The notes beneath the pieces were generated by a model that made no database searches, had not been told where the DNA came from, and saw nothing but the letters and a program-made list of their open reading frames with translations. A stretch of DNA of 25,115 bases from a virus. Lineage: Duplodnaviria > Heunggongvirae > Uroviricota > Caudoviricetes. The stretch lies in the IMG/VR virus record IMGVR_UViG_2541047736_000010, positions 1-25,115 of that record; one strand, 5' to 3'. This document shows, piece after piece, positions 10,149-15,108 of the stretch. Made by a program: the position numbers and the translations under genes. Numbering within the stretch: the stretch's first letter is position 1; each line of letters opens with the position of its first letter.

Positions 10149-10622
10149 TTATTTCAGGCATTGCGTCCTGATGTATTCCTGCAGGTAGTTAACCTGCGCG
10201 GTTATCTTGTCGATTCCACTTCGGAGACGGTAATAATTGAGTTCAGCATCTGCTGTAAGTCTTGGGCTTTCTCCATCGCCCATGCTGCTGGCTCCGGTCG
10301 TTGACTTTGCACAGGTGGCGGCGACTTGCAGGCGCTTACGCCCAGCAGAAACATCAGCACGGAGACTTTCGATAGTCGCGTTAGCATCAGCAAGCTCCTT
10401 TGTGTATCTTGCGTCGAGTTCTGCTACATCACGTTGACGCTTCCGCATGTCAGCGATGGTGGCGTTCGCCTTCTCCAGTTCACTGGCCTTGTTATCGCGC
10501 TGCTCTTTGTAGGCGATTGCGTTATCACGGTAATGATTAACAGCCCATGACAGGCAGACGATGATGCAGATAACCAGAGCATAAATAATCGCGGCGACTC
10601 TGCTCACTGATCTATCCCCCAA
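10149..10622 (-). CDS. Spanin inner-membrane subunit (Rz-like i-spanin)
   Basis: 157 aa with an N-terminal TM segment ([18 protein letters not shown]) and a coiled-coil-like charged periplasmic domain. Lies directly downstream of the endolysin and contains an embedded +1-frame lipoprotein ORF. Confidence 0.8.
10202..10393 (-). CDS. Spanin outer-membrane lipoprotein subunit (Rz1-like o-spanin), embedded in Rz
   Basis: 63-aa ORF in an alternate frame inside Rz. Signal peptide with lipobox LLGVSAC, followed by a proline-rich segment ([13 protein letters not shown]), typical of Rz1. Confidence 0.7.
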
Positions 10623-11137
10623 CAGGCTAATGCGCTTTCCTGGTCACGACGAATAACCTGTCCATAGCAGTTATTTGAACGTATGCGGCAATCGCGCCCA
10701 CCATCTTTTATCCACCAGCGAATCGCCTCGCATGCACCTTTACGATCACCGGCATTCAGCCGCTTATAAAACGTCGACGGGAAACACTTACCGGGGCCAA
10801 TGTTATAGGGACAAAATGACGCGATACCCGCTTTCTGTGGTTCGGTCAGTGGCACTTTAATATTGCGCTCCACCCATGCCAGCGCCTTATCCCGTTCAAT
10901 GGCGTTAACCTGGTCGCATTTTTCCTTCGACAGTTTCATACCGGGAAAAACGGGTTTTCCATCCACCACCGTGGCACCCCGACAGATGGTCCAGATGCCG
11001 GAACCATCGCGGTATGCCGTTGTGTGGTTACCTTCTTTTTCATCCAGAAACTGGTCGAGAATATCAGGCGCAGGCGCACCGACGGCAATCAGTGCCAGAA
11101 CGGCAGCCGACAGGCCGTATCTGATTTTTGCGTTCAT
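10604..11137 (-). CDS. SAR endolysin (phage lysozyme with N-terminal signal-anchor-release domain)
   Basis: N-terminal weakly hydrophobic Gly/Ala-rich segment ([16 protein letters not shown]) followed by a lysozyme-like motif ([22 protein letters not shown]). Paired with a class II holin upstream. Confidence 0.85.
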
Positions 11138-11242
11138 GGATATTTATCAGGATTTATCGGTTTCTGAACCCTGGATATGTTTATCTGTCCCGGCCTGTTG
11201 AATCAGGCAAGGAATAGTTAAATACAATAGAGAGGATTGTTT

Positions 11243-11515
11243 ATGGACAATAGCACCATTTCTCTACAGGAGTTGCTCGACTGCATTTCCAGGCTTCGGG
11301 ATGATGTAAATGCCCTTACTGTCGCATTTTCATATCTGGCATTCTCAATTCCCAAGGAACAAATGCAACCAACACTGGCATCGCTCCAGCTTGAATCACT
11401 CAACCCCAAATGGTCCCAGCAACAACAAAATTCTTTCAAGTGGCTGGCGGTATTACTGGAAGAAAAATATGCTGGTGAAATTACCATTTCGGCGGAGTCT
11501 TCAGAGAACCAGTAA
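11243..11515 (+). CDS. Candidate small ORF (90 aa) antisense to the lysis operon
   Basis: ATG at 11243 preceded by AGAGAGGA with 6-nt spacing. Lies in a 343-bp gap between the endolysin start and the upstream gene and overlaps that gene's 3' end by 35 nt. Protein-likeness not verified. Confidence 0.3.
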   Translation: MDNSTISLQELLDCISRLRDDVNALTVAFSYLAFSIPKEQMQPTLASLQLESLNPKWSQQQQNSFKWLAVLLEEKYAGEITISAESSENQ

Positions 11516-11825
11516 TTCTTCCCGGTAGCTTTCCTTTGTAGGTTATCCACACATTCTGCGCCTCTAAAATTATGGGGCGCTTTTCCGGCGACAGCTCATC
11601 CCCTTCACATAACCCGGCAGCAACATCCAGGAAGACCTGTCTGATGCTCCTTCTGGCTGCTGCCTCATAAAACTCCAGCGCGGCACCTTCAACACGGTCC
11701 AGCGAGATGTCCAGGTCAAAAATTTCACCGTCAAAGCGTTTTTTGTCCCGTAACGCTAAAGTTACCGTAACTTTATTCTCAAAATTGCGGATCCCTTTCA
11801 CAATCAGTTCATAGTTTTGAGTCAT
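11481..11825 (-). CDS. Hypothetical protein between holin and endolysin (same position as YdfR in the Qin prophage)
   Basis: 114-aa ORF MTQNYELIVKGIRNFENKVTVTLALRDKKRFDGEIFDLDISL... starting 5 nt after the holin stop. Family not recognised with certainty. Confidence 0.55.
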   Translation of the reverse strand: MTQNYELIVKGIRNFENKVTVTLALRDKKRFDGEIFDLDISLDRVEGAALEFYEAAARRSIRQVFLDVAAGLCEGDELSPEKRPIILEAQNVWITYKGKLPGRITGSLKTPPKW

Positions 11826-11829
11826 TGAA

Positions 11830-12045
11830 TTACTCTCCCCGTGCAGCCTTACGCTTGTCTTCTTTAATCTTGAAATAAAGGTTTGTCAGGTACGTCAGCA
11901 GGCCAAATACCAGGCTACCCAGCACTCCAATTGCCGCCCACTGTGAGGGCGTGACTTTATCTAGCAGCTGTAAAAACCAGTACCCGGCACTACCTGCTGA
12001 GGTGCCATAGGCGACACCCGTTGTTAACTTATCCATGGATTTCAT
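11830..12045 (-). CDS. Class II holin (S21/EssD-type pinholin)
   Basis: 71-aa [71 protein letters not shown], near-identical to the recalled DLP12 EssD / phage 21 S holin. Has the Met1/Met4 dual-start motif, two TM segments and a charged C-terminus. Confidence 0.9.
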
Positions 12046-12150
12046 AACCCCACCTCGCAGACAAAGCGGGTGTAAATTGAGGGAATACTACGAAACGTAA
12101 CAGACTCGGAGTCAGTGAATAACTCAGGTATTGGGTTATCAGCTAATATC

Positions 12151-12190
12151 GAGACTCAAAAAATGGAAAAACCCGCTCGACGGCGGGTTT
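12151..12190 (-). terminator. Intrinsic terminator upstream of the holin (candidate tR'-like late terminator)
   Basis: 8-bp stem aaacccgc/gcgggttt (12169-12176 / 12183-12190) with loop tcgacg. On the minus strand it is followed by tttttccatttttt. About 125 bp upstream of the holin start in the late direction. Confidence 0.5.
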
Positions 12191-12320
12191 AAGCTGTGTG
12201 ACGAAGTAACCACTCTTAACAGATTAAGATAAAATTTGCGGACCGCGGTAATTTTTTTTGCTAAATTAAAGCCATATAAAAAAAGATCCATAAGAAATTA
12301 TTAGTATACTAAGGTTTAAC

Positions 12321-13262
12321 ATGGCTACTATTGCGCAATCAAAGAAACAAAAAAAACTTAAAATTGGTTTTTACACCAGCAGTTCTGGGACTATCCGCAG
12401 CCATTCAGTTGCTAAGCAAGCAATTGAAAATCTGTATAATACTTGCGTAACCGTTACGAATAATCATTTTGATACCATCTATAGAAATAAAAAGTTAAAA
12501 ATAGCTTTTATAAATAAAGATACAAAAGCTAAATATTTCTTCGGCTACATGTCATGCTCACGAGAAGAGTATCTCCTTCCTTATATTGGTGATGAATACT
12601 GGAATGAGCACAACATACCACTAGATGATAAAAAATACATAGTCGAAAGAACCTATTTTTTATATTATTACGATAGTGATATTTTAATATTAACTCAAAA
12701 TCATCTTGGGCCGAAAGAATCGGATTTAGCTTATCTGCTTTACAGCCAGAGTGGTAATCCTGGAAATAACTTTTCATTCCAAGCCATCTGGAAAAAAGAG
12801 AGCGTCAAAGAGCTACTTGAAACAGGAAGTACTTTGAGAAGTTGTGATATTGTCCTGGCTGCTCCCAGGAACTTTGATGCAACAAATTACCAGTTAAATA
12901 GTTCATTTTCTAAGGAACTGGTAAATATGATGGTAGGGCTGGGTGGAACACATCTCAAGTTAAATCTAAGGGGACGTGCATCAGGGAGAGTAAAAGTCAA
13001 AGGTTATTTATCAGATCTCGTTAAGGATGGTATTAAAGAACTCCTTGAAAAAATGCCGGGAATTGTAAAAAAAGCGGCAGTAACACAGCCCAAAAATACC
13101 GTTGAACAAAGTCTTCTTGATCAGGTACTCATTTCAGAAAAAAACATATATACCGTTAATGGTTATGGCACTGATAGTGATGTTCTGCAAGCCATGATTT
13201 CTGCTAAAATTGATAACAATGAATACCTTAAGCAATACGATATCAGCAAAAAGAAGGTATAG
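12321..13262 (+). CDS. Unknown 313-aa soluble protein; first gene of an AT-rich two-gene cassette (candidate RexA-like sensor)
   Basis: ATG at 12321 with AAGG 6 nt upstream. Visibly AT-rich and lysine-rich. On the strand opposite all surrounding phage genes. Stop is 3 nt before the next gene's ATG. No family confidently recognised by eye. Confidence 0.7.
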   Translation: MATIAQSKKQKKLKIGFYTSSSGTIRSHSVAKQAIENLYNTCVTVTNNHFDTIYRNKKLKIAFINKDTKAKYFFGYMSCSREEYLLPYIGDEYWNEHNIPLDDKKYIVERTYFLYYYDSDILILTQNHLGPKESDLAYLLYSQSGNPGNNFSFQAIWKKESVKELLETGSTLRSCDIVLAAPRNFDATNYQLNSSFSKELVNMMVGLGGTHLKLNLRGRASGRVKVKGYLSDLVKDGIKELLEKMPGIVKKAAVTQPKNTVEQSLLDQVLISEKNIYTVNGYGTDSDVLQAMISAKIDNNEYLKQYDISKKKV

Positions 13263-13265
13263 GAT

Positions 13266-13709
13266 ATGTTATTGAAATACTTAAGAAACCTGATTGTAAG
13301 TGTTTTTTGCACCTTGTTCCTACTGAGGTATATCCCTCAGATGGGGCATGCTGACATACTTACAGCCTCCGGGGTTATTTCAACTGTATCCGGTATTTTA
13401 TTTGGTTTTATTTTAGCCACAATATCAATTTTTAGTGCTGCTAGTGAAAACTCAAATGGAATAATAAAAGCATTAAAAAACAACAACATACTTCAAGTTA
13501 TTATTGTAAATCTATTAACCGCCGGTGCATCTTTAATTACGGCATGCGTTATTGCTTTGATAGCAATGTTTGCCAATGAAAAGACATTGTTACATGGAGA
13601 AAAAATAGAATTTATTTTAATTATCGAATCTTTATCTCTTCTTATCATTTCAGTAATAACTTTTGCCTTTACATGGAGAAAAGTAAACTGGATACTCCCC
13701 CACATTTAA
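13266..13709 (+). CDS. Small polytopic membrane protein (about four TM helices); candidate RexB-like channel/effector
   Basis: 147 aa with four hydrophobic stretches (about residues 9-23, 31-59, 75-102, 115-136). Tightly coupled to the upstream gene. From memory, lambda RexB is 144 aa with four TM helices and an FRHYIPG stretch in its first helix; this protein has LLRYIPQMG at the same place. Confidence 0.75.
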   Translation: MLLKYLRNLIVSVFCTLFLLRYIPQMGHADILTASGVISTVSGILFGFILATISIFSAASENSNGIIKALKNNNILQVIIVNLLTAGASLITACVIALIAMFANEKTLLHGEKIEFILIIESLSLLIISVITFAFTWRKVNWILPHI

Positions 13710-13710
13710 A

Positions 13711-13732
13711 AAGGGCAGAAATGCCCTTTTTT
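13711..13732. terminator. Bidirectional intrinsic terminator between the cassette and Q
   Basis: Stem gggca/tgccc (13713-13717 / 13722-13726) with loop gaaa, flanked by aaaaa upstream and tttttt downstream, so both strands read hairpin plus U-tract. Abuts both the cassette stop and the Q stop. Confidence 0.7.
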
Positions 13733-14110
13733 CTACTCCATTTCAAGTTTAACATCCAGCATTGAAAGGCATCCATCAATAAACCCTTCAGCCATCTGTA
13801 TCTCTATACGTATCAATTTCTCATCTTTTTTGCGAGCTCTTGCAAGCTTTCTTTTCGAGATGCCATACAGGTAATGGGCCACAATCAAAGAATGCTCGTA
13901 CGGTTTTCGCTTTTTAAGAAGAGCAAGACAACCTTCAATAATTAATGCATCACTATCTGAACAAGCCTGACGTGTTTTGCTTGTATAGGGAAGAAGCCCT
14001 TTAAACCCAGCAGCTACAGGAGAATAGTCTACTCCTGAACTATCACTCGCCGCCCATGCTCCCCAACGATCCAGAACCATTTGAATATCACGCATCAACT
14101 TTCTCCACAA
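13733..14110 (-). CDS. Late antitermination protein Q (phage 82 / QuuD type)
   Basis: MRDIQMVLDRWGAWAASDSSGVDYSPVAAGFKGL...GFIDGCLSMLDVKLEME resembles recalled DLP12 QuuD / phage 82 Q. Start could be the first Met (14110) or the Met five codons in. Confidence 0.85.
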   Translation of the reverse strand: MWRKLMRDIQMVLDRWGAWAASDSSGVDYSPVAAGFKGLLPYTSKTRQACSDSDALIIEGCLALLKKRKPYEHSLIVAHYLYGISKRKLARARKKDEKLIRIEIQMAEGFIDGCLSMLDVKLEME

Positions 14111-14112
14111 AA

Positions 14113-15108
14113 TCAGGCCAGCACGCCAGTTGCCAGCGCACGATCGATAAAACGAAATATCAGCTCCAGCTGGGAGCCATACCTCTCTTCAAATGCCACG
14201 GTATCCGCATGCAGCTCGTCGTGATGCTTTCTGCACAAAGGCAACACAAAAAGGTCATGCGCTTTTGTTCCCATTCCACCCTGACCGTAACCTATCAGGT
14301 GGTGGGGATCATCAGCGGGCTTTCCACAACATGCACACGGCTGTGTCTTAACCCAGCGCGTGTACTTTTCATTAACCCAGCGGCGACGTTTTGGGCGTAA
14401 CATAAAAGACTCCGGCGACTCCGGATCCACTTTCAGCGCCAGCACCTTTTTCGCTTTATCCTGGATAATGCTGGTGGCAGGAACCGAAGGAACAAGGTCA
14501 CTCTCCCGGGTGACAGACGGCACAACAGGCTTCGGTAATCTCAGTGCCTTACGGGCTGCACTTTCCGGTAAGGCATCCGCCAGGTCATTACGAATCAGCC
14601 ACCAGCACAGTTCCGGCATTGTCACAACGTGACTGTCATCAAAACCGAGATCCCGACGCACAACAGACAACACCCAGCGGGCACAGTTATCCGTTGCCAT
14701 TGATTCCAGCCGTTCCGTGAACTGATCGCGCAGCTGGTTATCGCAGTGCCAGCACAGACGGATTGCACCCGGAGCGTGTCGCATTGTGGTCATGTTCTCG
14801 CTGTGCCAGTCGGAATGAGGCCACTGGCAGCCTTTTTCACGAAGTAACCAGCTTTCAAGACATTCCACGCCACCAGCACGACGGATCACTGCCTCATTGC
14901 GGAACACGGCCCGAACGGCAGGATCATCCGCCAGCGGTTGTGATGCCGCCGGAACGGCACCACTCGCGAAAGATGAATAACGCTCCGGCTCAGGCTCCAG
15001 CAGGACACGCCCCTGCATAAACAGGGGCATCAGCTCTGAACCTGGCCTGAACAATACGATCCCCATACGCGGGGCAACTTCAGGGGTCAGTAGTGCTCTC
15101 ACGGTCAC
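14113..15108 (-). CDS. DUF968 family protein (YdfU-like)
   Basis: C-terminal motif CACCGKPADDPHHLIGYGQGGMGTKAHDLFVLPLCRKHHDELHAD is typical of DUF968 proteins found just upstream of Q in Qin-like prophages. Confidence 0.6.
   Translation of the reverse strand: MTVRALLTPEVAPRMGIVLFRPGSELMPLFMQGRVLLEPEPERYSSFASGAVPAASQPLADDPAVRAVFRNEAVIRRAGGVECLESWLLREKGCQWPHSDWHSENMTTMRHAPGAIRLCWHCDNQLRDQFTERLESMATDNCARWVLSVVRRDLGFDDSHVVTMPELCWWLIRNDLADALPESAARKALRLPKPVVPSVTRESDLVPSVPATSIIQDKAKKVLALKVDPESPESFMLRPKRRRWVNEKYTRWVKTQPCACCGKPADDPHHLIGYGQGGMGTKAHDLFVLPLCRKHHDELHADTVAFEERYGSQLELIFRFIDRALATGVLA

Follow-up and report, generated by a model that had tools for sequence, protein, structure and literature searches.

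The gene for the antiterminator Q is directly followed by the late promoter in lambda and phage 82. The annotated late control features of phage 21 comprise a -35 element, a QBE, a -10 element, a transcription start site (TSS) and a terminator. The interval between Q and the lysis genes may also host accessory genes, as it does both here and in Stx-converting phages (PMC6266700, PMC7547250). Phage 434B, which carries the Q-nmpC::IS5-essD segment of prophage DLP12, is viable and grows (PMC9119081); lytic growth thus tolerates 2.9 kb of opposite-strand DNA inserted between Q and the late genes.

The window considered here is a stretch of 25,115 nucleotides from a virus of the class Caudoviricetes (IMG/VR record IMGVR_UViG_2541047736_000010). 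Its putative late promoter is located 1.5 kb from Q, not immediately downstream of it, and a cassette on the opposite strand fills the interval. The late regulatory unit is probably intact and displaced by 1.5 kb from its activator gene, Q. What is read from the sequence as an intact late switch occupies minus-strand positions 12158-12260, shortly before the holin gene. The features are as follows, in the order in which they are met from Q to the lysis genes.

13733..14110, minus strand: late-gene antiterminator Q of the QuuD/phage-21 superfamily (125 aa if translated from the listed TTG, 120 aa if from MRDIQ)
13708..13732, both strands: two-way intrinsic-terminator-like hairpin, A5-GGGCA-GAAA-TGCCC-T6, between the converging cassette and Q stops
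12321-13262 and 13266-13709, plus strand: Rex-like two-gene cassette, about 1.4 kb, AT-rich, between Q and the late promoter module
13266..13709, plus strand: second cassette gene, 147 aa, four hydrophobic segments, resemblance to RexB
12321..13262, plus strand: first cassette gene, 313 aa, DUF6731 protein with a RexA/RdgC-type fold
12260..12320, plus strand: cassette promoter/RBS interval, with AAGG at 12311-12314 as putative RBS, read directly from the sequence
12252..12259, minus strand: A8 tract (-45..-38), where a proximal UP element of the late promoter would lie
12238..12246, no strand assigned: palindrome GCGGTCCGC, 9 bp, at -32..-24, candidate Q-binding element
12221..12226, minus strand: -10 hexamer TAATCT, from conservation and spacing to the mapped DLP12 start
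12214, minus strand: predicted late TSS, the A of GTTAAGA, whose homologous K-12 base is mapped
12188..12220, minus strand: conserved block from -6 to +27, GTTAAG followed by AGTGGTTACTTCGTCACACAGCTTAAA
12158..12190, minus strand: tR'-equivalent intrinsic terminator, AAACCCGC-CGTCGA-GCGGGTTT and then TTCCATTTTTT, from terminator scan and fold
11830..12045, minus strand: first late gene, S21-type class II holin/antiholin (PF04971, E 2e-35)

Q and the late promoter module

The Q open reading frame matches PF06530 over the full model (Pfam, E 7e-52) and on this match is a member of a recognised antiterminator family. Its stop codon occupies 13733-13735. The match to the solved Q21 structures 6p18 and 6jnx is distant, weak but specific (E 0.0015), and the residues specific to individual Q groups are concentrated in the part that aligns with the helix-turn-helix region of Q21.

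The proposed -10 hexamer is well conserved among 54 unique promoters at A-11 (54/54), T-7 (54/54) and T-12 (48/54), with the middle three positions free. CTTAAT (12228..12223) was also considered as the -10 and was rejected, as the conservation of A-11 and T-7 and the mapped start favour TAATCT. The K-12 homologue of 12214 is base 577,229 of NC_000913.3 (576,452 of U00096.2; the offset of 777 between the assemblies was verified against a neighbouring strong TSS). This base is a called Cappable-seq TSS, a weak one, with an enrichment of 4.8 and an RRS of 1.7 that is barely over the cut-off of 1.5, and it is positioned in DLP12 exactly 7 nt past the -10 hexamer (6 nt between). The K-12 SMRT-Cappable-seq tables consulted contain no entry for the late start site, and the K-12 Term-seq tables (Adams 2021) contain none for the 3' end of the leader. 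By homology to DLP12 of K-12, a sigma-70 promoter with its start site would thus be present upstream of the first late gene. An alternative reading of TAnnnT, as the pause element of an unseen promoter further upstream, was rejected, no TSS being listed for K-12 in the 370 nt upstream and the TSS being positioned 7 nt past the hexamer.

The -35 region (TTACCG, spacer of 19 bp) is a poor one. A consensus promoter scan of 11700-14300 called nothing in 12190-12320 on either strand, because it is too strict for such a weak -35; the late promoter is placed at 12214-12260 by the conserved -10 and by TSS homology instead. An Rfam search of 11500-14300 in E-value mode gave chance-level matches only. 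Judged by the UP-element consensus, the A8 tract occupies the position of a proximal UP element, and an A-rich tract is found at -45..-38 in most loci. In the loci L012 and L115 the corresponding tract is formed by the last codons of Q, and the A8 tract of the window is, on this comparison, a leftover of the A-rich Q 3' end seen in uninterrupted loci.

Each position of the palindrome is conserved in at least 52 of 54 sequences from Q-seeded loci, while its flanks vary, and its end is always located 17 nt before GTTAAGAG. The motif GCGGTCCGC-N11-TAnnnT-GTTAAGAG has a single occurrence in the window, at 12213-12246, and GCGGTCCGC-N11-TAnnnT-G.TAAG is found downstream of Q in all 77 evaluable loci identified by Q similarity alone. 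A plus-strand terminator call at 12236-12248 was discarded, since it corresponds to the palindrome and A-tract in the opposite reading direction. The palindrome occurs in variants according to the Q allele: GCGTACGC, ACGTACGT, ACGATCGT, GTAATTAC, TCGTTACGA, and GCGGGCCGC. Q proteins are at least 71% identical inside a palindrome class, against a median of 49% between the main classes. No mismatch of Q and palindrome across classes was encountered in about 180 loci from several genera, despite differing flanks and cargos, and new Q types in Kosakonia and Pantoea come with new palindromes. The positions of the elements, their conservation and co-variation, and the start site at the homologous K-12 base are direct observations. 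As the palindrome changes with the Q allele, it is probably the binding site of Q.

The block from -6 to +27 is identical across Q allele groups and persists in different genera, also where another terminator follows it. No conserved -10-like pause hexamer (TAnnnT, with A at position 2 and T at position 6) is present at +1..+27 across the aligned loci; the best candidates, TTACTT and TACTTC, miss one of the two key bases or vary among loci. A defining part of the lambda/phage 21 mechanism is therefore not found. RNAalifold predicted no RNA hairpin at +2..+17, where the pair counts came out at 80-86% paired, with almost no compensatory change. The inverted repeat GTTAAG/CTTAAC around the start shows some GATAAG/CTTATC co-variation; it was rejected as a functional element in view of counter-examples (L218, L220) and of its untranscribed 5' arm.

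The tR'-equivalent consists of an 8-pair GC-rich stem (12190..12169) followed by TTCCATTTTTT to 12158, and precedes the holin ATG (12045) by 113-145 nt; a second minus-strand terminator with a long U-tract upstream of the holin, as claimed in the sequence-only reading, is thus present. A leader RNA terminated here would be about 50-57 nt long. Other genera have different hairpins at this position. The order past the holin is a DUF1327 gene, endolysin and spanin, with the open reading frame at 10604-11137 matching PF00959. The segment 12000-12222 is 100% identical to the essD region of phage 434B/DLP12.

Cargo between Q and the late promoter

The cassette has a GC content of 0.30-0.39, compared with about 0.5 in the flanking phage genes. 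A RexA fold, as expected of the soluble component, is found in the product of 12321..13262, and hhalign of the cassette against RexA gives an E-value of 0.09. The product of 13266..13709 has hydropathy segments at residues 2-20, 37-55, 78-108 and 116-134, mirroring lambda RexB, to which BLASTP gives only E 0.012 over the equivalent N-terminal residues. Neither protein matches the RexA or RexB families of Pfam; the sole Pfam match is that of the first protein to DUF6731, the second having none. PADLOC gave no match at E<=1 for either protein, and a literature search for DUF6731 returned nothing. Kinship of the cassette with KwaB was considered (Kiwa sits at the same site elsewhere) and rejected (BLASTP E 1.2). 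The cassette thus resembles the RexA/RexB exclusion system of lambda in its predicted features and stands outside its sequence families.

The cassette presumably carries its own promoter. A consensus scan of 12260-12320 found none on either strand; the best -35-like candidate, TTGCTA at 12258-12263, abuts the A-tract of the late promoter. The late promoter would be back to back with whatever drives the cassette ATG at 12321, in keeping with the earlier proposal that it shares its interval with a divergent cassette promoter. As in morons, the independently expressed accessory cassettes of prophages, presence/absence polymorphism at a fixed site flanked by conserved phage genes and a deviant base composition are observed, and the cassette terminator is present and cargo-specific.

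This terminator-like hairpin at 13708-13732 is 1 nt from the Q stop and overlaps the stop of the open reading frame 13266-13709. It shows a T-run on either strand, and folds at -13.4 kcal/mol (z -4.0) on the plus strand and at -13.0 kcal/mol (z -2.5) on the minus strand. The consensus terminator scan missed it, because its A/T extension consumes the T-tail. The hairpin and the plus-strand open reading frames bear out the description of the Q stop as followed by a bidirectional terminator and about 1.4 kb of antisense cassette. A different stable hairpin of their own is found no further than about 35 nt from the Q stop in 13 of 20 cargo classes, and loci without cargo have no such hairpin after the Q stop. 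Since it varies by cargo type and is absent without cargo, the hairpin belongs to the cargo.

In total, about 180 related loci from several genera were compared, 71 seeded on Q alone and 104 on the promoter core. The junction structure of the window recurs across these loci, so the hairpin arrangement is no chance alignment. Cargo is located between Q and the promoter in 57 of 71 Q-seeded and 98 of 104 core-seeded loci; Q is directly fused to the module, with its stop 8-38 nt from the core, in the other 14 and 6, respectively. The same 8-38 nt are found in Kosakonia, Pantoea, Trabulsiella and strain LSJC7; in all these fused loci the promoter overlaps the Q 3' end. Separation of Q from its promoter by cargo is, from these counts, the usual layout for this Q family. 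The interrupted geometry, by implication an anomaly in the sequence-only reading, is in itself ordinary and is shared by DLP12, PA-2 and the viable phage 434B (PMC9119081).

The junction holds at least 20 different cargos of 0.5-3.0 kb, almost always on the opposite strand and with a GC content of 0.33-0.42 over all types. Among them are Kiwa, a KAP NTPase, an HNH effector, candidate PADLOC systems and porins, besides the Rex-like pair. In four cargo contexts (the DUF6731 cassette, the KAP NTPase, nmpC::IS5, and DUF6731 with a methylase after it) the lysis genes are preceded by a conserved 55-bp core that has the terminator at its end. Each cargo type was encountered with one Q group only, and shared ancestry could for this reason account for part of the co-variation between Q and palindrome.

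Proposed mechanism and rival explanations

In the ancestral layout, the last Q codons would run straight into the late promoter. Low-GC cargo would then have been inserted between the Q stop and about -46 of the late promoter, pointing away from the late operon; in the window this cargo would comprise a RexA-like gene, a RexB-like gene with four TM segments, a two-way terminator and presumably a promoter, both belonging to the cargo. Host sigma-70 RNA polymerase would initiate at 12214 on the minus strand via TAATCT, with a weak -35 and the upstream A-tract. Without Q, transcription would stop at 12190..12158 after a leader of about 55 nt, leaving holin, endolysin and spanin silent. After induction, Q would be produced from the early operon, and as it acts in trans the distance from its gene would be irrelevant. 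We infer that Q recognises the palindrome of its allele, GCGGTCCGC (-32..-24), and joins the polymerase as transcription initiates or shortly thereafter, that the terminator responds to Q, and that the Q-loaded polymerase, having become terminator-resistant, reads into the lysis and morphogenesis genes. The hairpin at the Q stop would end cassette transcription and limit collisions between cassette and early transcription.

A possible but rather doubtful extension concerns the manner of loading. Q proteins of the QuuD type, a large family present in most E. coli genomes, may bind as a symmetric dimer to the 8-9-bp palindrome at the -35 position and engage polymerase while sigma region 2 holds the promoter -10, without a separate pause element. 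The palindrome ends 11 bp upstream of the promoter -10, a spacing that resembles that from QBE to pause element in phage 21. Such a Q would be an activator of a promoter without a good -35 as well as an antiterminator. If Q indeed acted through this short site alone, the module could dispense with all sequence upstream of about -46, and this self-sufficiency might explain the Q/promoter junction as a general docking site for opposite-strand defence cargos.

The sequence-only reading had left two places for the late promoter, of which the short interval before the holin is retained (12214-12260, minus strand). The other, a promoter directly downstream of Q from which Q-modified polymerase would pass the hairpin at 13708-13732 and cross the cassette antisense to the holin, is extremely improbable. 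The T-run of that hairpin on the minus strand could in principle make it act as tR'; however, a single nucleotide separates it from the Q stop, nothing promoter-like or Q-site-like follows that stop, and the Q-linked motif of the window is that at 12213-12246. The hairpin, moreover, comes and goes with the cargo, and the second, conserved terminator would still bar entry into the holin. It is quite unlikely that 12158-12260 is a promoter and terminator whose palindrome serves another regulator or divergent cargo promoters, Q acting elsewhere, for example on the block from -6 to +27. The palindrome does overlap the -35 position, a common binding place of repressors and activators, it is an inverted repeat unlike the direct-repeat QBE of Q21, and the block is conserved beyond the need of a plain leader. 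Yet the palindrome is found at equal distance in cargo-free loci and is therefore not part of cargo promoters, its classes follow the Q allele groups across genera, including Kosakonia and Pantoea, and the block, being the same in all Q groups, cannot give allele specificity.

Coupling of cassette and late operon through a shared bidirectional control region, by supercoiling, polymerase competition, or silencing of the cassette by Q occupancy, was held likely in the sequence-only reading and appears unlikely here; nothing found bears on coupling. Only 61 nt lie between the cassette ATG and the A-tract, which would put both promoters back to back within about 100 bp, with the -35-like TTGCTA of the cassette adjoining that tract, and other cargos come as near as 56 nt from ATG to core, the shortest distance seen. 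Against this, the late promoter has an identical layout whether one of at least 20 unrelated cargos or none is present and shows no co-evolution with any, DLP12 has about 400 nt between porin start and promoter, and the consensus scan located no cassette promoter. In lambdoid phages pR' fires constitutively and control is exerted at the terminator (PMC7547250), so coupling is unneeded. A decayed module, with lysis genes driven by host signals in place of Q, might be suspected from the reported response of DLP12 lysis genes to RpoE and Hha (PMC7918800) and from a much stronger K-12 start 371 nt upstream of the Q-linked one. That strong promoter is located in DNA specific to the porin cargo and absent from the window, the same cassette and module are present in the inducible phage cdtI, and Q, palindrome, -10 and terminator are all intact with evident purifying selection, which makes a remnant very unlikely.

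In annotating phages with this very common type of Q, one should seek the late promoter beside the lysis genes, not beside Q, with the allele-specific palindrome, 11 nt, TAnnnT and GTTAAGAG as search motif. The Q/promoter junction may be regarded as a well-defined location for prophage genes that are expressed in the lysogen, and can thus be mined for new defence genes. The naturally matched Q alleles and palindromes permit a direct specificity-swap test, and the absence of a pause element may point to a variation on the textbook Q mechanism.

Comparison with described late control regions

Phage 21 shares with the window a Q of the same Pfam family, an S21-type holin downstream, and a compact plan of promoter, start and terminator, with an annotated pR' transcript of about 50 nt and a putative Q site inside the promoter. 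Q21, however, has 162 aa and is only about 24% identical to the Q of the window, and its promoter begins 7 nt past the Q stop, where the window has 1.5 kb of cargo. The QBE of phage 21 is a 16-bp direct repeat at -27..-12, whereas the candidate of the window is a 9-bp inverted repeat at -32..-24. Phage 21 also has a -10-like pause element, TAAGCT, at +2..+7, and none is conserved in the module of the window.

DLP12 (qsr') and PA-2 show the same succession of Q, converging cargo terminator, opposite-strand cargo, late module, tR' and S21-type holin, and from -6 to the holin they are 98-100% identical to the window. Their cargo is a porin gene, nmpC or lc, in place of the Rex-like pair. The QuuD allele of DLP12 is 48% identical to the Q of the window and is paired with the palindrome ACGTACGT, and about 400 nt of extra cargo-specific DNA with a strong additional start site precede its module. 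The DLP12 promoter of Pasqua 2021 was considered as the Q-linked promoter and set aside: the forward primer is 470 nt upstream of the core, and the reported +1, about 349 nt upstream, is located in porin-specific DNA and is therefore not that of the Q-linked promoter.

The accessory genes of Stx phages differ from the cargo of the window in their placement. The stx genes are downstream of pR'/tR', on the late strand, and Q-dependent, whereas the cassette of the window is upstream of the promoter on the other strand and would thus be outside Q control. Lambda RexA/RexB form a two-gene prophage module, in which a soluble protein of about 300 aa comes first and a four-TM membrane protein of about 145 aa second. 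The cassette has the same gene order and similar protein sizes, and its second product shows a comparable set of four hydrophobic segments. The rex genes of lambda are located beside cI under pRM, whereas the Rex-like pair of the window occupies the junction of Q and the late promoter.

The late promoter between cassette and holin

The late, rightward strand of the prophage is the minus strand of the window. The gene for Q, the late-gene antiterminator, is separated from the holin gene by a hairpin, an opposite-strand cassette of two genes and a second terminator; all features that the sequence-only reading had described are found in the sequence.

Features between Q and the lysis genes
14110..13733, minus strand: Q (Pfam PF06530, E 7e-52)
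13732..13708, both strands: hairpin A5-GGGCA-GAAA-TGCCC-T6, -13.4 kcal/mol (plus) and -13.0 kcal/mol (minus), with a T-run both ways
12321-13262, plus strand: cassette gene 1, 313 aa, DUF6731
13266-13709, plus strand: cassette gene 2, 147 aa
12190..12169, minus strand: terminator stem with T-tract to 12158, from a terminator scan, in the 275-nt spacer between cassette and holin
12045..11830, minus strand: S21-type holin, followed by a DUF1327 gene, endolysin and spanin

The GC content of the cassette is 0.30-0.39 and that of its flanks about 0.5. On the minus strand at 11137-11481 and 11481-11825, holin and endolysin are separated by a gene of the DUF1327/YdfR family, and about 340 nt with no clear gene precede the endolysin.

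The DNA preceding the lysis genes was aligned in four contexts: the window; phage cdtI and strain PSS-07, with the window's cassette plus a methylase downstream; a KAP-NTPase locus; and DLP12 and phage 434B, with nmpC::IS5. A 55-bp core, CTGTTAAGAGTGGTTACTTCGYCACACAGCTTAAACCCGCCGTCGAGCGG, with a terminator at its end, is invariant in all four, and both of its flanks vary. Upstream of the core the order is fixed, consisting of an A-rich tract, an 8-9-bp palindrome, 11 nt, TAnnnT and then GTTAAGAG. Among 54 unique promoters collected by Q similarity, the hexamer has A at position 2 and T at position 6 in every case and T at position 1 in 48, with the middle three positions free. Conserved ends around a free middle are the signature of a -10 element, and the hexamer is assigned accordingly. 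Every palindrome position is kept in at least 52 of the 54, with variable flanks.

A published Cappable-seq table for K-12 lists a plus-strand transcription start site (TSS) at U00096.2 576,452 (RRS score 1.7, enrichment 4.8); essD, the DLP12 holin gene, starts at 577,398 in NC_000913.3. The offset between genome versions is 777, checked on the neighbouring strong TSS 576,081, which then has TATTAT exactly at -12 to -7. This places the K-12 TSS on the A of GTTAAGA, 7 nt past the hexamer. The window contains a single copy of the combined motif, and transfer of the K-12 start predicts the following elements.

Late promoter elements predicted from the K-12 TSS
12259..12252 (-45 to -38), minus strand: A8 tract
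12246..12238 (-32 to -24): palindrome GCGGTCCGC
12226..12221, minus strand: -10 hexamer TAATCT
12214, minus strand: predicted +1, giving a predicted terminated leader RNA of about 50-57 nt

The promoter has a weak -35 region. A plus-strand "terminator" reported by the scanner at 12236-12257 (TTGCGGACCGCGG then TAATTTTTTT) is the palindrome and A-tract on the other strand; its stem would have a loop of only 1-3 nt, and it is probably no terminator. In DLP12 (locus L129; K-12, NC_000913.3), a much stronger Cappable-seq start is located at 576,858 (plus strand, RRS 90, -10 TATTAT). This start adjoins the nmpC start codon and faces essD, with the Q-linked start 371 nt further downstream; it sits in porin-cargo DNA, which the window does not have, and may correspond to what has been studied as the 'DLP12 lysis promoter'.

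Scanning viral contigs for the core yielded 120 loci, 104 of them with enough upstream sequence to find Q, and in all 104 a Q of the window's family is encoded on the same strand as the core. In six of these just 27-38 nt lie between the Q stop and the core, so that the promoter must overlap the end of Q, and we take this uninterrupted overlap as the ancestral state; 0.5-3.0 kb separate the Q stop from the core in the remainder. A second sample was picked by Q similarity alone and is thus unbiased as to the core. The late module lies downstream of Q in all 77 evaluable loci of this sample. Among the 71 with a core at most 3 mismatches from the consensus, 14 are uninterrupted and 57 interrupted; 53 of the 57 inserts have their longest ORF on the opposite strand.

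Cargo at the Q/late-promoter junction

The junction from the Q stop to about -46 of the late promoter (window 12260-13732) is a hotspot for inserts, here called cargo. At least 20 different low-GC inserts are found there, almost all on the opposite strand. The survey (loci L002, L011, L013, L017, L025, L032, L037, L060, L069, L070, L095, L096 and L121) includes Kiwa (KwaA/KwaB), a KAP NTPase, an HNH effector (PDC-M68A), PDC-S42, PDC-M53A, NA37-family proteins, Dcm with an AAA ATPase, and Lc/NmpC porins. The cargo of L121 is a putative DUF262-like protein, judged by sequence alone, and several cargo proteins are without any match. In PSS-07 (L001) and cdtI (L005), which share the window's cassette and promoter module, the late strand carries a small ORF plus a DNA methyltransferase gene of 1053 bp between the late terminator and the holin; cargo may therefore also sit downstream of the tR' equivalent, the terminator preceding the first late gene, where Q control would apply.

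The sequence-only reading had placed the late promoter either within 12190-12320 or such that late transcription crosses the cassette antisense, with probable coupling of cassette and lysis-gene expression in both cases. The first placement was right, as the module lies at 12158-12260 with +1 at 12214 by homology. Antisense crossing lacks support; the hairpin beside Q is cargo-specific: 13 of 20 cargo classes have their own, differing hairpin, and cargo-free loci have none. Coupling is unsupported, the promoter layout being the same with any cargo or none; some interference may occur between the cassette and late promoters, which must lie within about 100 bp. The observation is confirmed and its interpretation partly right, and the interrupted geometry is ordinary for the window's Q family.

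The AlphaFold model of the DUF6731 protein has a pLDDT of 80, from a 29-sequence alignment. The 147-aa protein has four hydrophobic segments in a RexB-like arrangement, and its N-terminus matches RexB weakly (E 0.012). Neither cassette protein qualifies as a member of the Rex sequence families, and we call the cassette Rex-like in predicted fold and architecture, not a confirmed Rex system. At least 80% of a 2.4-kb query is covered at one place in only 25 of 5,426 complete E. coli genomes. In Citrobacter braakii ATCC 51113 (L152), the cassette-side flank of the palindrome is nearly identical to that of the window, and Q, 89% identical, lies at the same 1.5-kb distance, which suggests that the cassette has moved between genera.

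Palindromes and Q alleles

Comparison of the loci indicates that the palindrome class tracks the Q allele.

Palindrome classes by Q group
Q at least 71% identical to the window's Q: GCGGTCCGC
Second Q group, 49-58% identical: GCGTACGC
QuuD, the DLP12 Q: ACGTACGT
QuuD-like Q, 82-85% identical to QuuD: ACGATCGT or ACAATCGT
Kosakonia Q: GTAATTAC
Pantoea Q: TCGTTACGA
Strain LSJC7 Q: GCGGGCCGC

In all cases 17 nt separate the 3' end of the palindrome from the core. Q proteins sharing a palindrome class are at least 70.8% identical, with a median of 49% between the main classes. Every class includes cargo-free loci and loci with many different cargos, which assigns the motif to the Q-promoter module and not to the cargo; no cargo type shared by two different Q groups was seen among the loci compared. 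The residues that distinguish Q groups are mostly in the stretch aligned to the helix-turn-helix region of Q21. Taken together, the comparative evidence argues strongly for the palindrome as a candidate Q site.

A conserved -10-like pause element was sought in +1 to +27 of the related promoters and none was found. The block from -6 to +27 (window 12188-12220, minus strand) is nearly invariant across Q groups and is retained across genera even with differing terminator hairpins. GTTAAG (-6 to -1) and CTTAA(C) (+22 to +27) form an inverted repeat, for which there are some cases of GATAAG/CTTATC co-variation and also counter-examples. At +2 to +17, where a 5' RNA hairpin might form, RNAalifold predicts none; the positions count as 80-86% paired, with hardly any compensatory change. 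Q might load while sigma still holds the -10 hexamer of the promoter itself, at 11 bp from the palindrome, a route that we consider rather unlikely. In oral streptococci (Streptococcus mitis, S. oralis and relatives; L140, L142, L143, L147, L153), the 17-mer TAAGAGTGGTTACTTCG is likewise present, at a single conserved site just ahead of a terminator-like hairpin, most likely by coincidence and with no relation to the Q module.

Comparison with known phages

Among the open-access papers searched, none was found to describe the palindrome or the late promoter used by QuuD-type Q proteins. The allele-matched palindromes with no recognisable pause element and the cargo hotspot are by-products of moderate interest. 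The late switch of the window follows the same compact plan as that of phage 21, annotated from experiment, in which the -35 sits 7 nt past the Q stop, the spacer is filled by a 16-bp Q-binding element (QBE), a pause element lies at +2 to +7 after the TSS and a terminator ends an approximately 50-nt transcript. The palindrome differs from the Q21 QBE in lying further upstream and in being an inverted rather than a direct repeat.

An opposite-strand gene between Q and the holin gene S is classical, as with lc in PA-2 and nmpC in DLP12 (qsr'), and the records examined agree. In phage 434B, Q, the late promoter and the lysis region are swapped for a DLP12 segment including nmpC::IS5, and plaques still form (PMC9119081). 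The inducible phage cdtI carries the window's DUF6731 cassette at the same site. Because 434B forms plaques and cdtI has this cassette there, the geometry is functional and already known.
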